From the IMG/VR virus record IMGVR_UViG_3300048672_000029, positions 1 to 50,548 of that record: a stretch of DNA of 50,548 nucleotides, one strand, 5' to 3'. Numbering within the stretch: position 1 is the stretch's first letter; every line of letters begins with the position of its first letter. This stretch comes from a virus (taxonomy: Duplodnaviria > Caudoviricetes). The translations under genes and the position numbers were made by a program. Below are positions 3,163-39,058 of the stretch, in pieces. Below the pieces are notes generated by a model. It searched no databases. It saw nothing but the letters and a program-made list of their open reading frames with translations, and had not been told where the DNA came from.

Positions 3163-3978
3163 TTAACCAAATCGTTTAAAATAAACTTTAGGGTCTGAGA
3201 AGTCGTGTACAGACTTACCTTCTTTGTGAAGCTCTTCAACCATTTGATTAGCTCTTCGCTGTTCAGCTTGAAGCTCTTGTGATGTAGCACCAACTAAAGT
3301 AGGGGTCTTATTACGACCAACATTAGAATCGGTAGGAGGAACAAAGCTAGAGCTATTCACCGAGCTGGTCTGGGTAGACCCTTGTGTAGGTGGAGCAGCT
3401 TGCGTAATGCCGAGAGTCTTAAAAATTAATTTTGGATTTTTGGCTGCAAGAACATTAAGTTCTGCAACGCTCATCCCTAGTTCTGCGGCGGTCTCATTAA
3501 ACGTTTGTTCAGCTTTATCACCAAACTTTGCAACCAAAGCATTAACAACAGCTTTTTGATTGATCTTAGCTTGAGCAATTTGCTCACGTTGACTGAGGGT
3601 TCTATCTACTAATTCGGCAACAGTCTGTTCTGACAATGCTGCAGGTGGTTTGCCTGCTTCATCTGTCTTCTCAGTGAGGCTACGTATAGAATTCTCTAGT
3701 TCTGCAATTCGCTCTGCTTCTTTACGCAAACGTTCAATTTCCTTATCTTTCTGAGAGAGATCGTCTGTCAGTTTAGGAATGTATGTTTGTGCATTTTGCA
3801 AACCTACTAAAGCATCCTTTAGAGTTTTATACTTAGGCTCTCCACGTTCATTCTTGATTCCGGCTAACAGGTTTGTAAGCTCAGATTCTGTATTAACGTT
3901 GTCGGTATTGCCAGTACCGGAGGGTGGGAGGGTAGTCCCGGATTCTTGATTATCAAAAATACTTGTCTGGTCTGACAT
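3163..3978 (-). CDS. Capsid scaffolding protein
   Basis: 271 aa with coiled-coil and low-complexity linkers; between portal and MCP. Confidence 0.8.
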   Translation of the reverse strand: MSDQTSIFDNQESGTTLPPSGTGNTDNVNTESELTNLLAGIKNERGEPKYKTLKDALVGLQNAQTYIPKLTDDLSQKDKEIERLRKEAERIAELENSIRSLTEKTDEAGKPPAALSEQTVAELVDRTLSQREQIAQAKINQKAVVNALVAKFGDKAEQTFNETAAELGMSVAELNVLAAKNPKLIFKTLGITQAAPPTQGSTQTSSVNSSSFVPPTDSNVGRNKTPTLVGATSQELQAEQRRANQMVEELHKEGKSVHDFSDPKVYFKRFG

Positions 3979-3993
3979 GTATTGTTCTTTCTA

Positions 3994-4281
3994 TTAAATT
4001 GTTTGCGAAAGCTTGAAATGTAATTTTCTATGACAATTAGCGCATAGAACAATACATTTAGATATTTCTTTTTCTAGACGAGTCCAAGAAATGTTAACAG
4101 ACATACTACCTATAGAATAATCTTTAGTAGAAGAGTCTATATGATGTAAATCTAAAACACATGTTTCTTTTTCTCCGCATTCCTTACATTCTTGTGTAGC
4201 TTTCCATTCTCTAAACTTTTGTCTATTTTTATTTTGCCATTTTACACTTGCAAGTTTTTGAGAATCAGTACGTTTAGCCAT
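3994..4281 (-). CDS. Free-standing HNH endonuclease
   Basis: CKECG...DLHHID...LCANCHRKLH zinc-binding HNH signature. Confidence 0.85.
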   Translation of the reverse strand: MAKRTDSQKLASVKWQNKNRQKFREWKATQECKECGEKETCVLDLHHIDSSTKDYSIGSMSVNISWTRLEKEISKCIVLCANCHRKLHFKLSQTI

Positions 4282-4362
4282 TAGAATATATTAAATATTA
4301 ATTATACTTCTTAATCTCACTCGCTTCGCTCGTTCGTATTAAGATAATTTAGTAATAGCTAA

Positions 4363-9828: not shown

Positions 9829-11459
9829 TGCGTTGCTGTCTTTGTATCTTTAAGATGTTGTACGATGCTTCCAATGATACACCAGAGAGGTCGCATATAA
9901 GTTTCGATATTGGAAGCACTATACGTACCTCCTAATCCTGAAGCAATATTACCTACTGCACAAGTTCCATTCCAATCAATATTAGCTACGGAGTTGAAAG
10001 CATTAACGTTAGAGCCTGTCCAGTTTACGAGGTTAGCAGACCATCCTAATGATGCTCCAAAAGCCTTGCTAGCCCCTGCTAAGGTCATCCCTGTAGCTCC
10101 AAAGCTTACGACAGAAACTGTCCCAGGACGTATTTCAATCGTAGGATCAGTGCTTCCTCTGTTAAACGTCTGTATATAACCTTTACCAGAAGCAATACCT
10201 ACGTCAAAACATTGATATACAGTGTCTGATGTAGAATTGTTACTAAAGAAAAGATTAGAGCTAGTTCCTGATCCACTAGGCTTAAACAATAGCGAAGTAG
10301 GGCTATTAGCTGTAGAAGATTGGAACGTAAAGAATGAAAGGAGGGAAGGACCAGTGCTAAAAGGGAATTTAAACCTTTGAGACGTAGTGGTAAATTCCAT
10401 ATCGCCAGCTACGTCTGCTCCAAATTTATTGAGCTTAGCTGTCTGATCTGAAACTACAGTTTCTGGAGGTCCCCAAGTACCTTTAATATTCGAGAAATCA
10501 ATGCTCCAAGTACCTAGATTATCTAAGAATACAGCAGCAAACATAAAGCCAGATTTAGAGAAATCTGCTCCTCCATTATGATCTAGAACATGCCCTGTAT
10601 CATTCTGAAGCTCCCAATATTTAGTTGTAGCTCCACTATACTTCCATAAACGATAACGAATATATTTAGCACTATTGTAATAAAGGACAGATTCTACTGA
10701 CACTTTATACCTAGCACCATCTACCAACAATTTATTACGAGGAGTTGTACTATCTGGAAATAAAAGCCTCTGAGTGCTAATACGTGTAGGGTCCCAAGTC
10801 TCTAGCATCATCACAGGAGTGAAGAGAGCTTGGTCTCCATTAAAACCACTCCAAGTAAGATTGCCCATAATAGCTCCATTACCTGTTACGGTAGTAGCTA
10901 CAGTAGCTGGGTCTTGTCTTAGAACAGTCGCTATATGAGCATTAGGATTATACAAGAAATAGTTATTACTAACAAACTCATATTCTAGCGTAAACTTACC
11001 AACTCCAGTATTAAATCCTGAAGGGTTGGTACTCATAAACTCTTGTCTACCATTAGGCGTAGAAGCATTCATAGTGAAATTGCTATACGTAGTGGTTACA
11101 GGAGTAGAAGCTGCTACTGTAGGAAGTTCTGCTAAAAGTTCAGCAATAGCTGCTTGTACATTAGTAGAGCTAATTGTTCCTACTGGAGTGAAGCTAATCA
11201 GGTTAGCTGTTGTAGCCCCTGATATAGCGTTTGTAACATCCTGTAGCCTAGCTGCTTCACTAGGGGAGAGAGGTTCTCGTAAATTATACAGACGAACACC
11301 ATTAACATCAACGTCTGTACGAAGTTGATTAGGTTCCCCTTCTGGGTTATTACGGTATAGAATTTTATTATTGAGTTCATCTTCTAGCTTGATAAAATTA
11401 TCGTTAATAGCTGCTAAATTAAATCCACTTGTTGGTTTCTGTAAAACCACTTTTGTCAT
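9825..11459 (-). CDS. Tail fibre / receptor-binding protein
   Basis: 544 aa; N-terminal anchor (AINDNFIKLEDELNNKILYRNNP...DVDVNG...AARLQDV) followed by a Ser/Thr/Gly beta-rich body; first gene of the late arm. Confidence 0.75.
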   Translation of the reverse strand: MTKVVLQKPTSGFNLAAINDNFIKLEDELNNKILYRNNPEGEPNQLRTDVDVNGVRLYNLREPLSPSEAARLQDVTNAISGATTANLISFTPVGTISSTNVQAAIAELLAELPTVAASTPVTTTYSNFTMNASTPNGRQEFMSTNPSGFNTGVGKFTLEYEFVSNNYFLYNPNAHIATVLRQDPATVATTVTGNGAIMGNLTWSGFNGDQALFTPVMMLETWDPTRISTQRLLFPDSTTPRNKLLVDGARYKVSVESVLYYNSAKYIRYRLWKYSGATTKYWELQNDTGHVLDHNGGADFSKSGFMFAAVFLDNLGTWSIDFSNIKGTWGPPETVVSDQTAKLNKFGADVAGDMEFTTTSQRFKFPFSTGPSLLSFFTFQSSTANSPTSLLFKPSGSGTSSNLFFSNNSTSDTVYQCFDVGIASGKGYIQTFNRGSTDPTIEIRPGTVSVVSFGATGMTLAGASKAFGASLGWSANLVNWTGSNVNAFNSVANIDWNGTCAVGNIASGLGGTYSASNIETYMRPLWCIIGSIVQHLKDTKTATQ

Positions 11460-11744
11460 ATTTTTTTCCTAAAAATTTTTACACGTTTACGACAAGATAT
11501 TCTACTAGAGAACTCCGTTCCTATGTAACGCTCCTGCGGAGCAGTAATTACCTATATGTGGCAAAGCCACGTTATCGCTTTACAAGCTCATCTATACATT
11601 ATGCTTCTTTACACCTGCTCATAATGGTCAGGAGTTATTCTCAAGAGGCATGTCATAATTTCTTGGAGAAATTTAGAAGGTGCAATGCACCTCTTTCTCC
11701 AAAAGTAAACCCCTGCATACCCCTCAAGCATAAGCTCAAGCTTA

Positions 11745-11763
11745 TATGAGAATCATTATCATT
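11745..11763. promoter_or_regulatory. Fur-box-like inverted repeat
   Basis: TATGAGAATCATTATCATT matches the 9-1-9 Fur box AATGATAATCATTATCATT at 17/19 positions. Confidence 0.5.
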
Positions 11764-11961
11764 TTGATCCAATCATCATATGAATAGACTAGATGGTTAC
11801 AATGCATTCTCCCCATTCTATTCATATACTGTCCAGTCACAATCTAGCCTTATTGTTCACATTATGTACTGTTTATGCGGGTTTCCGGACTATTGTGCCG
11901 TAAGGCACGTAGTAACAATTCAATATACATTATAGTTATATATCCTCATATGCTATACACA

Positions 11962-11978
11962 TTGGCATAACATATGCT
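11962..11978 (+). promoter_or_regulatory. sigma54-type -24/-12 site
   Basis: TTGGCATAACATATGCT: GG-N10-GC. Confidence 0.5.
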
Positions 11979-11998
11979 TACATGACATAAATGGCATT

Positions 11999-12053
11999 AC
12001 ATTATTGTCACATTTACATTATTGTCACATTCTCCCTGACATTATTGTCACAT
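11999..12053 (+). repeat. Three 15-bp direct repeats ACATTATTGTCACAT
   Basis: Exact copies at 11999-12013, 12016-12030 and 12039-12053. Confidence 0.9.
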
Positions 12054-12227
12054 ACGATAGAACATCTCTTATATAAGAAACCTATCAGAATCTCTGGGAG
12101 AATGCCGTTTAAACACGTTTTAAGTCACCTATCAGACGCCTAACGGCATTTATGCTATACACCCTGCCTGATATAGGTTTAATGCCTTATAGAGGCTAAA
12201 ATCTAGGAAAGTGTAACATTTCTATAG

Positions 12228-12244
12228 TTGGCACAGTCGTTGCA
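12228..12244 (+). promoter_or_regulatory. sigma54-type -24/-12 site
   Basis: TTGGCACAGTCGTTGCA, near-consensus to YTGGCACGRNNNTTGCW. Confidence 0.7.
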
Positions 12245-12292
12245 AGTATAGAAACGTCGGGGCAACAAACTTGTTCAGACAGGATAGGTAAG

Positions 12293-12309
12293 TTGGCATG
12301 ATAGCTGCT
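12293..12309 (+). promoter_or_regulatory. sigma54-type -24/-12 site
   Basis: TTGGCATGATAGCTGCT: GG-N10-GC. Confidence 0.6.
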
Positions 12310-12586
12310 TATATATCCGGGTCAGACAGTCATCGTACAGTCTGACAGTGTTCATTAAAAATTAGCTGTGTATGCGTTTATCAGTAGATGTTATGCATCT
12401 ATGGTTTAGCTTTAAGCGCTTTAGGATTGTCGTCCAGACTATGCCATTGATTCCAGATTGTGGAATCCAGGCAGGGTGCTGCTCGTCCGAAAAGTTAATA
12501 AAGAAAATCATAGTATGCCATGCATAACGCAATGGGTAAACAGGCACGATTTAATCGTAAATCGTGATATATCAGTACACAGTGAA

Positions 12587-12599
12587 TTCTTTAACAATT
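12587..12599 (+). promoter_or_regulatory. boxA-like antitermination signal
   Basis: TTCTTTAACAATT versus rrn boxA GCTCTTTAACAATT; preceded by a hairpin at 12545-12566. Confidence 0.45.
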
Positions 12600-12873
12600 C
12601 AATTACATAGAGTATCGCGGAATTAACTATTAAAAAGTAGCTGCGCTATCATGCTTTATTCTCCCTTACGTGTATGACAATCACACTATACGTAACAGAA
12701 TAGAGAATGGTAAACCAGTGATGAATAGCATTAAATGGCCGAATACATCTATAGATTTGCTAACCTATTGTTAATTCGATAGTATGTAAATCCATGCCCA
12801 TGTGACAGATGGGCATTAGTGTACATACTGTACAAACCCGCCTAATTCTGGGCAAACCTTATCGGAGATAATT

Positions 12874-13437
12874 ATGCCTTTCAAAGCAAATGATTTTGTT
12901 GCTTCTTTCGTTGCAACACTGGAAACCCTGACACAATCGGAAAAGATTACAAAAGCAACCCTTCAAACCCTTAGCCGTGATGTGCTTTATGCATTGCACT
13001 GTGATGGTGACACAAAGGGGGATATTGGGTATATCAATCGCACCATTGCCGTGCTTACGCCAGTAAACAAGAAAGCATTCATTCTGTTCTGCAAGGAGTT
13101 CACCGGGTTCATTATGAACAATGAGGGGAATGCTTTCCTTAAGAAATCCAAGAAGCATTACGAAGAAGTGTCACTAAAGGCACTGGCATTCTTGGATGAC
13201 CCAATGAATAACCTTTGGTCATGGGCTGATCGCAACATTGAAATGGAAAAGAAAGAATTCTCTCTTGATGCTGTGACACACACTATCGAAGTGCTGCTTA
13301 AGAAAGCGGCAAAGAACAACATCAGTCAGGCTGATTTCCTGCGTGCTGTAATGAAGGGCGGTATTGATTCCGATTCCATCATTGCGATTATGGATGATCT
13401 GGGTTTTGAAGTGGCTGATGAAAAGGAAGGCGAATAA
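12874..13437 (+). CDS. Early hypothetical protein, 187 aa
   Basis: GGAG SD upstream; first gene of the + arm. Confidence 0.85.
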   Translation: MPFKANDFVASFVATLETLTQSEKITKATLQTLSRDVLYALHCDGDTKGDIGYINRTIAVLTPVNKKAFILFCKEFTGFIMNNEGNAFLKKSKKHYEEVSLKALAFLDDPMNNLWSWADRNIEMEKKEFSLDAVTHTIEVLLKKAAKNNISQADFLRAVMKGGIDSDSIIAIMDDLGFEVADEKEGE

Positions 13438-13857: not shown

Positions 13858-13945
13858 GCGAGAGTGGCGAAACTAGGTATACGCAAGAGATTTAAAATCT
13901 CTCGATAGTAATATCATACGGGTTCGATTCCCGTCTCTCGCACCA
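13858..13945 (+). tRNA. tRNA-Leu(TAA)
   Basis: Acceptor stem GCGAGAG/CTCTCGC; anticodon arm AGAGA-TTTAAAA-TCTCT; long variable arm; GGTTCGATTCCC; encoded CCA. Confidence 0.95.
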
Positions 13946-13949
13946 ATAT

Positions 13950-14024
13950 ACGCCATTAGCTTAATGGATAAAGCTATGATCTTCTACATCATTGATATAG
14001 GTTCGATTCCTGTATGGCGTACCA
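13950..14024 (+). tRNA. tRNA-Arg(TCT)
   Basis: Acceptor ACGCCAT/ATGGCGT; anticodon arm ATGAT-CTTCTAC-ATCAT; T-loop TTCGATT; CCA. Confidence 0.95.
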
Positions 14025-14028
14025 ATAA

Positions 14029-14104
14029 GCAATCTTAGCTCAGTGGTTAGAGCAGGGTACTCATAATGCCTTGGTCATTGGTTCAAATCCAATAGATTGC
14101 ACCA
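14029..14104 (+). tRNA. tRNA with CAT anticodon (Ile2-like or Met)
   Basis: Acceptor GCAATCT/AGATTGC; loop CTCATAA; D arm, G27-U43 pair and variable loop resemble E. coli ileX; CCA. Confidence 0.9.
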
Positions 14105-24762: not shown

Positions 24763-25257
24763 ATGGATAAAAAATATTTAGAAAGTTTGCTAAGCTATGA
24801 CCCTAATACAGGTTTATTTACATGGAAAATAAATAAAGGAAGGGTTTCAGCAGGGTCTGTATGTAATAATACACAAGATCAAGGTTATAAAAAAGTGAAT
24901 ATAGATGGGAAATCCTACTATTTACACAGGTTAGTTTTTCTTTTAGAGGATGGGTTCTTTCCTAATGTAGTTGATCATATCAATGGGGATGTGTCAGACA
25001 ACAGAAGAATTAATTTACGAAAAACTTCTAGAGCAGGTAATAGACGCAACTCTAAAGTATCCAGTAACAACATCTCCGGTGTTAAAAATGTGCATTATAA
25101 CAAAAAGACCTCTTCTTATTCTGTAGCTATGCATGTAAACGGTGTTAGAAAAAGTTTTGGTAGTTTTAGTACCCTTGAAAAAGCAAAACAGGTAGCAGAT
25201 AAAGCTAGAGAAAATAACCATAAAGAATTTGCTTATAATGTACATTCCCATAATTGA
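24763..25257 (+). CDS. HNH homing endonuclease with AP2-like DNA-binding domain
   Basis: YDPNTGLFTW, HRLVF, VDHINGDVSDNRRINLR, NNISGVKNV...FGSF...A. Confidence 0.92.
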   Translation: MDKKYLESLLSYDPNTGLFTWKINKGRVSAGSVCNNTQDQGYKKVNIDGKSYYLHRLVFLLEDGFFPNVVDHINGDVSDNRRINLRKTSRAGNRRNSKVSSNNISGVKNVHYNKKTSSYSVAMHVNGVRKSFGSFSTLEKAKQVADKARENNHKEFAYNVHSHN

Positions 25258-25711
25258 ACAACACTTCATTGAGAATAGGCGTAAGCTTGTTAAGAAGATG
25301 GGGTTTAGGGCAGGAACTCCAGAAGATGCTGAAGATGTTGTACAAGAAGCTTATGCCCGAGCTATTAAATATCAAAAGAGTTTTGATGGAACTAATATAG
25401 ACAGATGGTTCCATACAATTCTTAACAATGTTCTTAAAGAGTTTAAGAATACACAAAAAGGATATTCTACAGTTGAATACGAAGAAGAAGAAGACCAAGC
25501 TGTAGAATATATCTACCCAACTAGGGTGATGGCTGAGATTTATGAAATGATTGATAAGCGTCCAGTAGTTCAGAAAGAAATACTTACGCTCTTCTTCACT
25601 CAAGAATATTCAGCTAAAGATATTAGCAACATCTTGCCCTCTTCATATTCCCAAATACATCAAGTGATACAAAGGTTCAGAAATGAACTAAAGGAAATCT
25701 ATCGTGAGTAA
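25238..25711 (+). CDS. ECF-like RNA polymerase sigma factor
   Basis: Region 2 (EDAEDVVQEAY...IDRWFHTILNN) and region 4 HTH (YSAKDISNIL...IHQVIQRFR); about 157 aa. Confidence 0.85.
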   Translation: MYIPIIEQHFIENRRKLVKKMGFRAGTPEDAEDVVQEAYARAIKYQKSFDGTNIDRWFHTILNNVLKEFKNTQKGYSTVEYEEEEDQAVEYIYPTRVMAEIYEMIDKRPVVQKEILTLFFTQEYSAKDISNILPSSYSQIHQVIQRFRNELKEIYRE

Positions 25712-33545: not shown

Positions 33546-34099
33546 GAGTATTAGTAGCTTGTGAGTACAGCGGAGTAGTAAGTCAAGCTTTTAGACTTAA
33601 AGGCCATATGGCTATTTCTTGTGATTTTCTAGAAAGTGAAATCACAGGGAATCAGTTTCATTATCAAGGAGATGTACGAAACATCTTAGATAAGAAGTGG
33701 GACTTGCTAATAGCTCACCCTCCCTGTACTCATCTAGCTGTAAGTGGGGCTAGGTGGTTTAAAGAAAAGAAAGAAGAACAAGTAGAAGCTCTAGACTTTG
33801 TACGTATGTTACTTGCTGCTCCTATTGATAAAATAGCTTTGGAAAATCCAATATCAATAATTAGCAGCAGGATACGTAAACCAGACCAGATTATCCAGCC
33901 TTGGATGTTTGGACATGGAGAGACCAAAGCAACATGCTTGTGGCTTAAGAACCTTCCTAAGCTTGTTCCTACGAACGTAGTAGAAGGAAGAGAAGCTAAA
34001 GTGCATAAGATGGGTCCTAGCCCAGATCGTTGGAAGAATCGTAGTAGAACATATCAAGGCATAGCAAACGCTATGGCAGAACAATGGGGGAATATTTGA
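33542..34099 (+). CDS. Short C5-cytosine methyltransferase-like protein
   Basis: VLVACEYSG (motif I-like), GDV, HPPCT (motif IV), LENP (motif VI). Confidence 0.75.
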   Translation: MRVLVACEYSGVVSQAFRLKGHMAISCDFLESEITGNQFHYQGDVRNILDKKWDLLIAHPPCTHLAVSGARWFKEKKEEQVEALDFVRMLLAAPIDKIALENPISIISSRIRKPDQIIQPWMFGHGETKATCLWLKNLPKLVPTNVVEGREAKVHKMGPSPDRWKNRSRTYQGIANAMAEQWGNI

Positions 34100-35262
34100 A
34101 TAAATCAGAATTTAAGACATCTTTTGGTGAAGACATCTTTAGATATAAATATGCTCAAGGTCCTGGAGACACCTGGGCTAAACTAGCAGAACGTATCGTA
34201 GAAGATGTATGTGGAAGTCGCTGGGGAACACTTCCTGTTTTAATGTCTACAGAAGATCGTAAGCAGCTAGTACAATACATTAAGGAATTTAAATTTATTC
34301 CTGGTGGACGATATTTGTATTACGCTGGTCGGCCTAATAAAGCATATAATAATTGCTATTTGTTACGAGCTGAAGAAGACACTAGAGAAGAATGGAGCGC
34401 TGTTACATGGAGAGCAATGTCTTGCTTGATGACTGGTGGAGGGATTGGAATTGATTATTCACGATTACGACCAGCAGGAAAAGCTCTTAGCAGAACTGGA
34501 GGAACTTCCTCGGGGCCACTCCCACTTATGTACGCTATTAATGAAATTGGGCGTAATGTTATGCAAGGAGGAAGCAGACGATCTGCTATATACGCATCTC
34601 TTAATTGGCAACACGAAGATATTATTAGTTTTCTTAAGAGCAAAAACTGGAGTGATTTAATCAAGGAGCAGAAGCTTCTAGATTTCAACTTCCCTGCTCC
34701 ATTGGATATGACTAATATCAGCGTCAATTACGATGATGCTTCTTTAATTAATGGATTAGAAAACAATGACATATTTAAGAGAAATGTTAGACAAGCAATG
34801 GAAACGGGCGAACCCGGCTTCTCCTTTAATTTTGGAGCAAAGCAGAATGAAACGTTACGGAATGCTTGTACTGAAGTTACCTCTGAGGATGATTCAGATG
34901 TTTGTAATCTTGGCTCTGCTAATCTCGGTAATATTCGAAGTATTGATGAGTTTCGTTCAGTGGTGCAACTTGGCAGTAAGTTCCTTGTTTGTGGCACTCT
35001 TCGGGCTGATCTCCCCTACGAGAAAGTTTACAAGGTTCGAGAAAAGAATCGACGCTTGGGTCTCGGACTTATGGGTATACATGAATGGCTATTACAGAGA
35101 CAGCTCCCTTACGAAGTTAATCCGGAACTTATTGAATGGTTAAAGGTATACAAGAATGACTCAGAAAAAGCTGCAAATGAGCACTGTGATCGGTTCTATA
35201 TTAGTCGCCCGGTTGCATATAGAGCAATAGCTCCAACTGGTAGTATTGGTATTCTTGCAGGT
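34084..35262 (+). CDS. nrdJ: Class II ribonucleotide reductase, exon 1
   Basis: PGGR, NNC, GGGIG, RRSA, GEPG, RNACTE, VCNLG, RRLGLG, IAPTGSIGILAG; no beta-subunit gene in the genome. Confidence 0.9.
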
Positions 35263-35336
35263 TATGTAGTAGCCTGCTCTGCAGAGTAATCTGCTTAAAA
35301 TAAATTGGGTGAATTCAGGGAAAACCTAAAGATATT

Positions 35337-35391: not shown

Positions 35392-35976
35392 ATGAATAAT
35401 TCGTTCGGAGATTATAAGTTGTTTGACAATGAAACAAAAGTCAACAACGATAATAGAAAACTCCTACATGTAATTTGCAAATGTGGAACTATTGATTTTA
35501 AAGAAGAAAGGAACCTTCTATCTGGAAGAACTACTTCTTGTAAATCTTGCTCTGCTAAGAAAACTGCTATAAACCATCCACCACCAATAATGTATAAAGG
35601 TTTCGGAGACTTATCTGGAACTCATTATCTTACGATACGTAATAACGCTATACGTAGGAATATATTGTTTAACCTATCTCCAGAATATCTCTGGAGGCTG
35701 TACGAGAGACAAAAAGGTAAATGTGCTCTTACAGGTGTTGATCTAGTTTTAAATAGATCATTAAAGAATAACAATGTAAATTGGGACGTAATAACTGCTT
35801 CTGTAGATCGTATCAAATCAGATTGTGGTTATGAAGATGGGAATGTATGGTGGGTTCATAAAGAAGTAAACCGTTTAAAGAATAATTATTCTATGGATGA
35901 ACTTCTTTATTGGTGTAAGTTACTAGTAAATAGACATGGCAATCCTGAGCCAAGCGTACTGAATAGCATAAAGTAA
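35392..35976 (+). CDS. Intron-encoded HNH-like homing endonuclease
   Basis: CKCG...SCKSC Zn motif; QKGKCALTG...SVDRI...GYEDGNVWWVHKEVNRLK. Confidence 0.85.
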   Translation: MNNSFGDYKLFDNETKVNNDNRKLLHVICKCGTIDFKEERNLLSGRTTSCKSCSAKKTAINHPPPIMYKGFGDLSGTHYLTIRNNAIRRNILFNLSPEYLWRLYERQKGKCALTGVDLVLNRSLKNNNVNWDVITASVDRIKSDCGYEDGNVWWVHKEVNRLKNNYSMDELLYWCKLLVNRHGNPEPSVLNSIK

Positions 35977-36126
35977 GTACGAAGGTGCAACGACTAACAG
36001 GTGAGAAGCTAACTCAATAATCCTGACACGAGCGCCCAACCCCTATTAATTAGGGTGAAGATATAGTCTGAGCTGCATAGAAATATGCAGAAGTATAAGA
36101 TAAAGAGCTTATACGATAACAAACTG

Positions 36127-36603
36127 ACAACCACAGGTATAGAACCTCTATTCGCTGTGGCATACAAAAGACGCTTCCTTACTGAGGGAACTAAGTGGAA
36201 ATACAAATACGTCGTTGACGGAACAGCTCAAAGCTTAATCCAGCAATACGATGTCAATCCAGATAATATAGAAAGTGCAATAGACTTAAGTGGAAAATAC
36301 GAGCAAAGAATCAAATTCCAAGCCGATATTCAGGATTTCGTTGATATGTCAATCAGTTCTACCATTAATCTCGAACAATGGGGGAGTGAATCTAATAACG
36401 AATCAAAAGTGGGAGAGTTTGCTAGCGTCCTTGCAAAATACGCTGGACGACTCAGGGGATTTACGTGTTATCCAGATGGTAGTCGAGGAGGCCAACCTTT
36501 AACATCTGTCCCATATTCTGAAGCTATTAAGCATAAAGATACTGTCTACGATGAGATTGTAGATATTTGTGACCTAACAGGTGGTGGCACCTGCGGTAGT
36601 TAA
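36127..36603 (+). CDS. nrdJ: Class II ribonucleotide reductase, exon 2 (spliced product about 551 aa)
   Basis: TTTGIEP, QDFVDMSISSTIN, RGFTCYPDGSRGGQPL, C-terminal Cys pair CDLTGGGTCGS. Confidence 0.9.
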   Translation, partial: TTTGIEPLFAVAYKRRFLTEGTKWKYKYVVDGTAQSLIQQYDVNPDNIESAIDLSGKYEQRIKFQADIQDFVDMSISSTINLEQWGSESNNESKVGEFASVLAKYAGRLRGFTCYPDGSRGGQPLTSVPYSEAIKHKDTVYDEIVDICDLTGGGTCGS

Positions 36604-37982: not shown

Positions 37983-38498
37983 TTAAGTAGCCGTGTAAGT
38001 TATCCCGTTAAAGCTGAACAATCCACTATTTGAAGCACCCAATGAGCCAGTATGATTGTGGGCAACATACAGCCCCCAAAACTTGGGCATGATGCCACCA
38101 AACAACTGTGCCACGCTAAACGGTTGGATGTAATAAACAAGTGCAGCAGTTGCCACAGTTACTGTAGGAGCAGCAGCAAAACGTAGACTATTCAATACTG
38201 AAACATGACTTAACGTTTCTGCACTATCTGTACCGTCAAGTACATCTATAGCAGTTGTAGCCAATGAGGTGTCAGCACCCCACACCCACAGACCGATATA
38301 TTGACCTACAGTTGGTGCAGTTGAAGCATGACCAGTAATTCCTTTAACGTTCACTAGACAATCATCGTACATGGTTGACGTATTATCTATTTGGGTAGAC
38401 TCACGTCCAGCCACAAAAGTAGAGGACGTACCCAAACTAGAAAGATCAAAGGTAATTGCTGTATTCGCTGAATACGTTTGTGTAAGTATTGTTGCCAT
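37983..38498 (-). CDS. Putative virion protein, 171 aa
   Basis: Thr/Ser/Ala beta-rich; coupled within the late operon. Confidence 0.65.
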   Translation of the reverse strand: MATILTQTYSANTAITFDLSSLGTSSTFVAGRESTQIDNTSTMYDDCLVNVKGITGHASTAPTVGQYIGLWVWGADTSLATTAIDVLDGTDSAETLSHVSVLNSLRFAAAPTVTVATAALVYYIQPFSVAQLFGGIMPKFWGLYVAHNHTGSLGASNSGLFSFNGITYTAT

Positions 38499-39058
38499 TA
38501 ACTAATCCTTGCTGCCATTACATCAGCATCTGAAATTGAACCTTCAAAAACTAAAATAGCAGATAATGCCCGTGTACTACCATCTCCAACAGCAGTGTCT
38601 GCCAGAATCTTTTCAATATACTTAGCTTTACGTGCAAGCGTATTACGAACAGCCGTCCAACCTGCATCTTGAGAAGCACCACCTACACCAGAGCGAACAC
38701 TTTGCAAAGCATCCTGCAAACCATTACGGAGATTAGCATCCGATGCATCTAACGTGCCAGTAAATGGTACGATATTCTGAAGATTAAACTGTTTACCTTG
38801 GCATTGGAGAGAACGATTAGCCCATGCCTGTGTACCATCAGGTACATCAGCAGGGGTCAAGTTAGCCCAGACAATAGCAGCACGAAGTAGATTAACGTTT
38901 ACATTAGTAGACCAAACCCAAAAGGTAGGAGCTGCTTCTTTATTAAGTTGAACTGCAAGATCAAAATAGCCATCCCCAGTCATGGGATAAGCAGCCCACG
39001 TGGGGTTGTTATTAATTGCGGTTTTGAGAGCAGTGAGTTGTGGTGCAGTGAGTGCCAT
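38498..39058 (-). CDS. Putative virion protein, 186 aa
   Basis: AAGGA SD; TAATG coupling. Confidence 0.7.
   Translation of the reverse strand: MALTAPQLTALKTAINNNPTWAAYPMTGDGYFDLAVQLNKEAAPTFWVWSTNVNVNLLRAAIVWANLTPADVPDGTQAWANRSLQCQGKQFNLQNIVPFTGTLDASDANLRNGLQDALQSVRSGVGGASQDAGWTAVRNTLARKAKYIEKILADTAVGDGSTRALSAILVFEGSISDADVMAARIS

Follow-up and report, generated by a model that had tools for sequence, protein, structure and literature searches.

For phages that lack an RNA polymerase of their own, the usual assumption is that early promoters are of the strong sigma-70 kind, which fire once the DNA enters the cell. Sigma-54 promoters do not open without an ATP-driven activator, which in turn is usually switched on by a signal. 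What, then, is the role of three tandem sigma-54-type elements in front of the early genes of a virulent phage? We examined this question in the 50,548-bp stretch of DNA referred to here as the window, which is a complete IMG/VR virus record with repeats at its ends. On balance we favour the reading that the three elements, P1-P3, are real RpoN-dependent early promoters fired by a host activator, and that they stand in place of the sigma-70 array of related phages.

The window phage and its gene-free slot

The window phage is uncultured and virulent, and has no RNA polymerase of its own. Its gene set includes a capsid, portal, large terminase, lysozyme, primase-helicase, family-A DNA polymerase, ThyX, ribonucleotide reductase and amidoligase/amidotransferase. 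From homology, gene content and gene order, as distinct from formal ICTV demarcation, we assign it to the podoviruses of Zobellviridae type, whose traits it displays: homologous capsid, portal and terminase proteins, its own sigma factor, an amidoligase module, and two convergent gene arms leaving one slot. Its capsid protein shares 70.4% identity with the CW02 (Salinivibrio phage) capsid and 68.5% with the Klyazma (Klebsiella phage) capsid, no isolate exceeds 69% identity in the terminase, and gene content and order match those of Klyazma and CW02. The best-matching metagenome run is labelled a freshwater metagenome, and may be the source of the phage; window-like pieces, 80-99% alike (mostly 85-95%), occur in four runs (aquatic, wastewater and freshwater) from four studies.

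The late arm occupies the - strand, from 11459 down through 1 and then from 50548 down to 36677, and the early/middle arm runs on the + strand from 12874 to 36603. Both depart from 11460-12873 (1414 bp), which is the sole long gene-free stretch in the window, and the corresponding slot in Klyazma is the site of the 711-bp terminal repeat of its virion DNA. The early/middle arm opens with an ORF of 187 aa that belongs to no family (12874..13437, + strand), at a position equivalent to that of a 188-aa ORF in the relative L009, and carries tRNAs, the amidoligase module, replication genes and a gene for a phage sigma factor of the sigma-70 family (25229..25711, + strand). The latter matches PF04542 (E 2.4e-8) and PHROG 1740, 'RNA polymerase sigma factor' (E 2.9e-20), has annotated homologues in Klyazma and CW02, and presumably serves later genes.

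Among further features of this arm, three tRNA genes (Leu-TAA, Arg-TCT, Met-CAT) lie at 13858-14104, right behind the first two early ORFs. Further along, an HNH/endonuclease VII-like ORF (35392-35976) separates the two ORFs (34084-35289 and 36085-36603) that share the barrel domain of ribonucleotide reductase, and several further HNH genes are dispersed across the genome.

Three sigma-54-type elements facing the early arm

The preliminary description of this DNA reported three + strand sites within 350 bp, TTGGCATAACATATGCT at 11962, TTGGCACAGTCGTTGCA at 12228 and TTGGCATGATAGCTGCT at 12293, all with GG-N10-GC geometry, and we find each of them as reported, with 10 bases between GG and GC in every case. 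The elements themselves are TGGCATAACATATGCT for P1 (11963..11978, with its GC at 11976-11977), TGGCACAGTCGTTGCA for P2 (12229..12244) and TGGCATGATAGCTGCT for P3 (12294..12309), all on the + strand. A sigma-54 transcript is expected to start some 12 nt beyond the GC, and the predicted starts are consequently at ~11989, ~12255 and ~12320, respectively. The extended sigma-54 consensus is TGGCACG-N4-TTGCW; outside the core, P1 matches this consensus at 5/8 letters, P2 at 7/8 and P3 at 6/8.

Both strands of the window were searched with the pattern TGGCAYNNNNNNTGCW (TGGCAY-N6-TGCW) and compared with 100 shuffles, yielding 4 matches against a shuffle mean of 0.44 (sd 0.67, largest 3); none of the 100 shuffles reaches 4, and the same pattern reversed, as a control, has 0 matches in the window. 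Calculated from the shuffle rate, the Poisson chance of at least three same-strand matches within one 1414-bp slot is ~4e-8. A weight-matrix scan of the window for RpoN sites agrees: with a matrix built solely from 8 sites of relatives, the three elements take ranks 1, 2 and 4 among all window positions, with P2 as top scorer; scores of at least 15.05 bits are expected 0.52 times per random window. The fourth pattern match, TGGCACGTTAGATGCA (38744..38759, - strand), lies within the late-arm ORF 38498-39058, is oriented with the late genes and has no boxA or hairpin behind it. It is probably incidental, and one chance match fits the expectation of 0.44. Judged by their sequence features, P1-P3 have everything that would be looked for in sigma-54 promoters.

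Conservation of the elements among relatives

Relatives were drawn from a terminase search of IMG/VR, which gave 17 loci. Those reaching the slot were scanned, together with L031, a metagenome contig found via the palindrome considered below; ten other terminase loci end short of the slot and lie outside the classification. Searching IMG/VR with the two proteins that flank the slot found no relatives, and blastn of the window slot against 50,697 phage records gave no match. Sigma-54-type sites occur in the homologous slots of L009 and L031 (3 each) and of L010, L020 and G005 (2 each). All 15 slot sites in these six genomes (the window plus five relatives) point to the early arm and 0 to the late arm, and the 10-base spacing of GG and GC is exact in 15/15. 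When the five sigma-54-type records other than L031 were searched whole (161 kb), only 2 matches were found beyond the slot.

In an alignment of the window, L031 and L009, core letters of the sites are invariant at 24/24 positions, compared with 7/21 in the spacers and 228/484 ungapped background columns. The core is invariant at 8/8 letters in each element, with spacer values of 2/7 for P1, 3/7 for P2 and 2/7 for P3. Invariant cores with variable spacers are the pattern expected of a two-part promoter element. However, P1 is limited to the closest clade, being missing in L010, L020 and G005, and this counts against the promoter reading. In an unbiased count of 4-N-4 dyads common to four slots, TGGC-N8-TGCT and TGGC-N7-TTGC belong to the leading group (6 occurrences), although this is level with the largest null maximum (mean 3.9, largest 6), and the dyad CCCC-N6-CCCC outranks them, with 8 occurrences and presence in all four slots compared.

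An alternative, which we regard as very improbable, is that the motif is read by something else, be it another DNA-binding protein, the packaging machinery (as a packaging or terminal-repeat signal) or the phage sigma factor. The slot is certainly rich in other conserved words (palindromes, a C-rich element, and a 40-nt element found in unlike contigs), and the physical ends of the genome are probably in the slot, by analogy with Klyazma. Nevertheless, the letters conserved are the exact sigma-54 core and spacing, and they recur in two separate clades with unrelated flanks. A role as promoters for the phage's own sigma factor is ruled out, given that Klyazma and CW02 possess the sigma gene yet lack the motif, and use of TTGGCA as a sigma-70 -35 is likewise ruled out, since neither P2 nor P3 has a -10 at 16-18 nt downstream.

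A ~40-nt element that includes the palindrome GGTGCAATGCACC (11679-11691) occupies 11651-11692 and is found in several otherwise unlike metagenome contigs, and the C-rich word AAACCCCTGCATACCCCTCAAGCATA is located at 11707-11732, towards the late arm; the elements of 11651-11732 may constitute a late promoter, an origin or a packaging signal. The word GAGAATCATTATCATTTTGATC at 11748-11769 resembles a Fur (iron-regulator) box, and similar words exist in the slots of L009, L031 and L012. The word ATAATGTATA, which resembles a phiEco32 late promoter, was considered and rejected, as it is not enriched in the window (11 matches vs 8.33 expected).

Sigma-70 promoters in the same slot

In eight relatives the slot carries 2-3 early-facing sigma-70-type promoters and no sigma-54 site. 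There are three in each of L013, Vibrio phage 468E53-1 and Klyazma, and two in each of G003, Vibrio phage 1.264.O, the oyster phage PQ867841, CW02 and ICP2 (the last by our scan; the depositors of the ICP2 record marked three sigma-70 promoters in the slot). In most of these genomes the promoters are near-consensus, with a TTGACA -35 and 10-12 of 12 letters matched. The sigma-54 slots, scanned for TTGACA sigma-70 promoters at 10/12 or better, contain none, and the sole early-facing sigma-70 match within them is TTGTAA-18-TATAAT in L009. Two slots depart from this division, which counts against the promoter reading: that of L014 has neither promoter class, and that of L012, of which 911 nt are present on the contig, has no sigma-54 site. 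L012 1-911 comprises a late-side slot part in common with the window, followed by weak TACATT-type sigma-70-like promoters and a boxA.

The absence of a clear TTGACA -35 from this region of the window, also stated in the preliminary description, is borne out by our scan of 11400-13000, in which all sigma-70-like sites on the + strand score 9/12 or lower and their number, 11, is near the 7.1 of shuffles (sd 2.7). Three such sites of 9/12, at 12623, 12674 and 12802, lie nearer the first gene than P1-P3, and count against the promoter reading. They admit an alternative in which P1-P3 are real but accessory or conditional: routine early transcription would start at weak sigma-70 sites such as 12802-12829 (GTGACA-16-CATACT), and the contribution of the sigma-54 promoters, when the host activator is on, would be a boost or the folded leader RNA alone. 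In keeping with this, the GTGACA of the 12802 site is retained in L009, inside a hairpin loop, P3 is far from the first ATG (554 nt), and the leader is itself a folded RNA. However, the weak sites are no commoner than in shuffles, both boxA signals precede them and would be left without a promoter to serve, and the sigma-70 relatives have consensus-grade TTGACA promoters in the slot and not weak ones. We consequently find an accessory role unlikely, and retain P1-P3 as the probable principal early promoters.

The structured leader and its boxA words

Between the predicted P3 start and the first ATG lies what would be an untranslated, structured leader of about 555 nt (12319..12873, + strand). 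As RNA, the + strand of this region folds much more strongly than its shuffles (z -5.16, compared with z -2.82 for the - strand), and the consensus fold shows paired changes in 37 of 108 pairs among 3 sequences, a small set whose covariation is at most suggestive. The fold includes a long-range helix in which the first boxA region pairs with a stretch ahead of the second boxA. An Rfam search of 11300-13000, at E values up to 1, gave no match.

Two hairpin and boxA pairs follow the sites. The first begins 1-2 nt past the predicted P3 start with the stem-loop GTCAGAC...GTCTGAC (12321..12346, + strand; fold -10.7 kcal/mol), which is kept in L031 through paired changes and for which L009 has a stem at the same place. 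Just 3' of this hairpin is the nutL-like boxA word GTTCATTAAAAATTAGC (12350..12366, + strand), at whose position L009 has an exact TCTTTAACAATT. The second comprises a perfect 9-bp hairpin, CACGATTTA-ATCG-TAAATCGTG (12545..12566, + strand), present in both the leader fold and the consensus fold, and behind it the rrn-type boxA ATTCTTTAACAATT (12586..12599, + strand), which matches the E. coli rrn boxA-spacer. The words were compared with the nutL and rrn boxA-spacer oligonucleotides of Table 1 of PMC2724277, where the E. coli rrn boxA-spacer is given as CACugcucuuuaacaauuua. Within the second word, TCTTTAACAATT (12588-12599) provides 12 contiguous letters identical to the rrn boxA-spacer UGCUCUUUAACAAUUUA. 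The position of both window words, in the predicted transcribed leader with a hairpin in front, fits that of rrn-type boxA.

The same anatomy is found among relatives irrespective of promoter class. The exact 12-mer TCTTTAACAATT is present in the slots of CW02, L009, L013, L014 and L020, facing the early arm every time, and all slots scanned have words within 2 mismatches of a 14-mer boxA that point to the early arm, with none pointing to the late arm. The order in CW02 is TTGACA promoter, hairpin and then TTCTTTAACAAT; L010 has a hairpin and GCTCTCTAACAATC behind its second sigma-54 site. In the window, L009 and L010, a hairpin follows a predicted sigma-54 start, with a boxA-like word at 30-60 nt from that start. 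Since other family members have sigma-70 arrays in this very slot, and this hairpin/boxA leader is common to the sigma-70 promoters of relatives and to the sigma-54 sites of the window, a promoter role for the latter is likely.

Two further observations concern this region. A contig of run X3, ~90% alike to the window, has 675 other letters in place of 15 bases at 12336-12352, between the P3 hairpin and the boxA-like word. Additionally, a hairpin ATGCCCAT-GTGACAG-ATGGGCAT is located at 12794-12816, ~60 nt upstream of the first early gene, and L009 keeps its GTGACAG loop with a stem that is spelled differently (paired changes).

Activator and candidate enhancer

No enhancer-binding protein had been recognised in this genome in the preliminary description, and profile searches lead to the same result: Sigma54_activat (PF00158) is missing in six frames of the window, in a search that was positive in 14/14 control genomes, and a PHROGs search of the window found no regulator besides the sigma factor. 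Because the phage encodes no enhancer-binding protein, a host activator would be needed. An activator-like phage protein without a GAFTGA motif is described in a recent preprint (10.64898/2026.10.06.757011), and has no bearing on the window phage.

A potential target for such an activator is a cluster of the 14-bp palindrome TGACATTATTGTCA, with three good copies and one degenerate copy, at 11983..12050, between P1 and P2. Copies with 0-1 mismatch are confined to 11983-12050 in the whole genome, L009 and L031 each keep three, and the cluster is the best-conserved 16-mer of the slot alignment of these three genomes. It sits right behind P1, and P2 and P3 follow at a distance of 210-320 bp. The usual enhancer distance is put at 70-150 bp, with variable position, in PMC3844500; the cluster exceeds the usual distance from P2 and P3, and this counts against the promoter reading. 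The cluster may be an enhancer or, equally, an operator.

Palindrome pairs of this type were also sought elsewhere. In IMG/VR the scan returned 2 loci, L009 and an unrelated phage in which the repeats precede the small terminase gene, and in metagenomes 5 loci, among them one true relative (L031); the remaining 4 have no more than 4-7 12-mers in common with the slot, and the 3 inspected are tandem repeats. A looser scan of bacterial genomes gave, among the matches listed (80 loci), palindromes of many kinds. Only 4 of the 80 listed loci have a sigma-54-like site within 1.2 kb, none of them adjacent, and in the closest look-alikes among the matches listed (Idiomarina) the palindromes read as the two arms of one hairpin.

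Other repeated words were noted in the course of these comparisons. In the L010 slot (4285-4352 and 3930-4290, - strand), another palindrome, GTCTTATATAAGAC, is present in four copies ~250 bp upstream of the first sigma-54 site, and TTATCCACA, the DnaA box sequence, occurs twice. The window has one TCTTATATAAGA at 12059-12070. In L027, an unrelated IMG/VR phage contig, TGACATTATTGTCAC occurs twice at 129-340, along with a run of TTGTCAC-like words, before a small-terminase-like gene.

Even when no activator is present, sigma-54 holoenzyme forms stable closed complexes. Such activator-free complexes, as described in PMC4591121 and PMC5095919, would allow the sites to bind the holoenzyme without firing, and to act as a polymerase sink or a roadblock, or to anchor or shield the DNA end as it enters. 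This corresponds to the proposal in the preliminary description that the sites capture RNA polymerase during DNA entry. This would accord with the lack of an activator in the phage, with the failure to find a link between palindromes and sigma-54 among the 80 bacterial loci listed, and with the terminal repeat of 711 bp held by the Klyazma slot. Moreover, many bacterial sigma-54 binding sites are not promoters, according to PMC4591121 and PMC3844500, and this weighs against the promoter reading. Yet a decoy needs no fixed orientation and no features at the level of the transcript, and 15/15 sites are early-facing; the sites are followed by a hairpin and boxA, as are the sigma-70 promoters of relatives; and binding without firing leaves these genomes without an evident early promoter. 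We therefore judge that the sites are quite unlikely to serve for binding alone.

Returning to P1-P3 as active promoters, the proposal in the preliminary description that early transcription depends on RpoN and an activator stands in part: the elements are of sigma-54 type and early-facing, and a promoter role is likely, but an activator delivered by the virion finds no support. RpoN is widespread in bacteria. The conclusion that the host contains RpoN is accordingly true but of little information.

Evolution of promoter class

The distribution of promoter classes was compared with a maximum-likelihood tree of one gene, the terminase, in which the midpoint root serves for display only. Sigma-54 slots occupy two separate places on this tree. 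The first consists of the window, L009 and L012, joined by L010, with support of 94-97, and is nested among sigma-70 types; the second consists of L020 with L023/G005 (support 100/100), next to L014. Read from this tree, promoter class has switched at least 2 times, or the slot has been exchanged by recombination. L012, whose terminase is 84% identical to that of the window, groups with the window and L009 (support 100/99) and so sits inside the first sigma-54 group, for which reason three switches are probable.

Taken to its full extent, the hypothesis suggested by this pattern is that a virulent podovirus lineage swapped sigma-70 for sigma-54 early promoters, on two or more independent occasions or by module exchange, and that infection is thereby gated by host signalling. 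We offer this composite scenario tentatively, as possible and not as the expected outcome.

A possible early programme and its implications

Under the promoter reading, the early programme would proceed as follows. After DNA entry, host core polymerase bearing sigma-54 would bind the three -24/-12 elements, and a host enhancer-binding ATPase would open P1-P3. Transcription would begin at about 11989, 12255 and 12320 and run rightwards through the 5' hairpin, the boxA signals would recruit host Nus antitermination factors, and the polymerase, having traversed the folded leader of ~550 nt, would enter the early arm with its tRNAs, amidoligase module, replication genes and phage sigma factor.

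If the tentative scenario above also holds, the first step of infection would depend on whichever enhancer-binding protein is active in the host. The phage would in effect put a physiological question to its host before committing itself, with the injected DNA able to stay poised in a closed complex until the answer is yes. A sigma-54 early programme would make infection conditional on host physiology, and would matter for the dormancy of phages in starved cells, for host range at levels other than receptor recognition, and for the use of phages in the field. Furthermore, sigma-54 and sigma-70 versions of one slot in related genomes represent a natural swap experiment, and they provide a promoter cassette that is orthogonal, tightly off and equipped with its own antitermination leader.

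Comparison with known systems

In our literature search, no account of arrays of sigma-54 early promoters in Zobellviridae-type phages came to light, and phage YuA was the only phage case returned. The closest likeness at the level of the elements is with bacterial sigma-54 promoters, which have the same GG/TGC cores at -24/-12, the same fixed spacing and the same extended TGGCAY-N5-(T)TGCW. The Salmonella sites hydH/zraS, hypA, yeaG and glnK are experimentally bound by sigma-54, as given in PMC3844500, and P3 with the next two bases matches the hydH site of that source at 16/18 letters. Unlike bacterial sigma-54 promoters, the window sites are in a virulent phage, before an early operon, and in tandem (2-3 per slot). 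They also differ in that neither a gene for a cognate activator nor an enhancer can be recognised in their vicinity, and in being followed by rrn-type boxA signals.

Pseudomonas phage YuA is a siphovirus unrelated to the window phage. It carries a sigma-54-like promoter (Ceyssens et al. 2008, as cited in PMC10914365), detected by ONT-cappable-seq and a promoter trap (PMC10914365), and resembles the window phage in having a promoter of host sigma-54 type and no known activator of its own. For YuA, however, a single sigma-54-like promoter is reported, beside sigma-70 and phage-specific ones. The window instead has an array in place of the entire sigma-70 early set, and relatives have such arrays too.

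Arrays of sigma-70 early promoters with boxA probably occur in T7 and phiEco32-like phages. The nearest counterparts in overall layout are the sigma-70 arrays of CW02, Klyazma and ICP2, which share with the window the slot between the arms, the orientation, the presence of 2-3 tandem promoters, and a hairpin and boxA within ~20-60 nt of the start. The two kinds of array differ in how they would be opened: sigma-70 promoters open unaided, whereas sigma-54 promoters need an activator that hydrolyses ATP.
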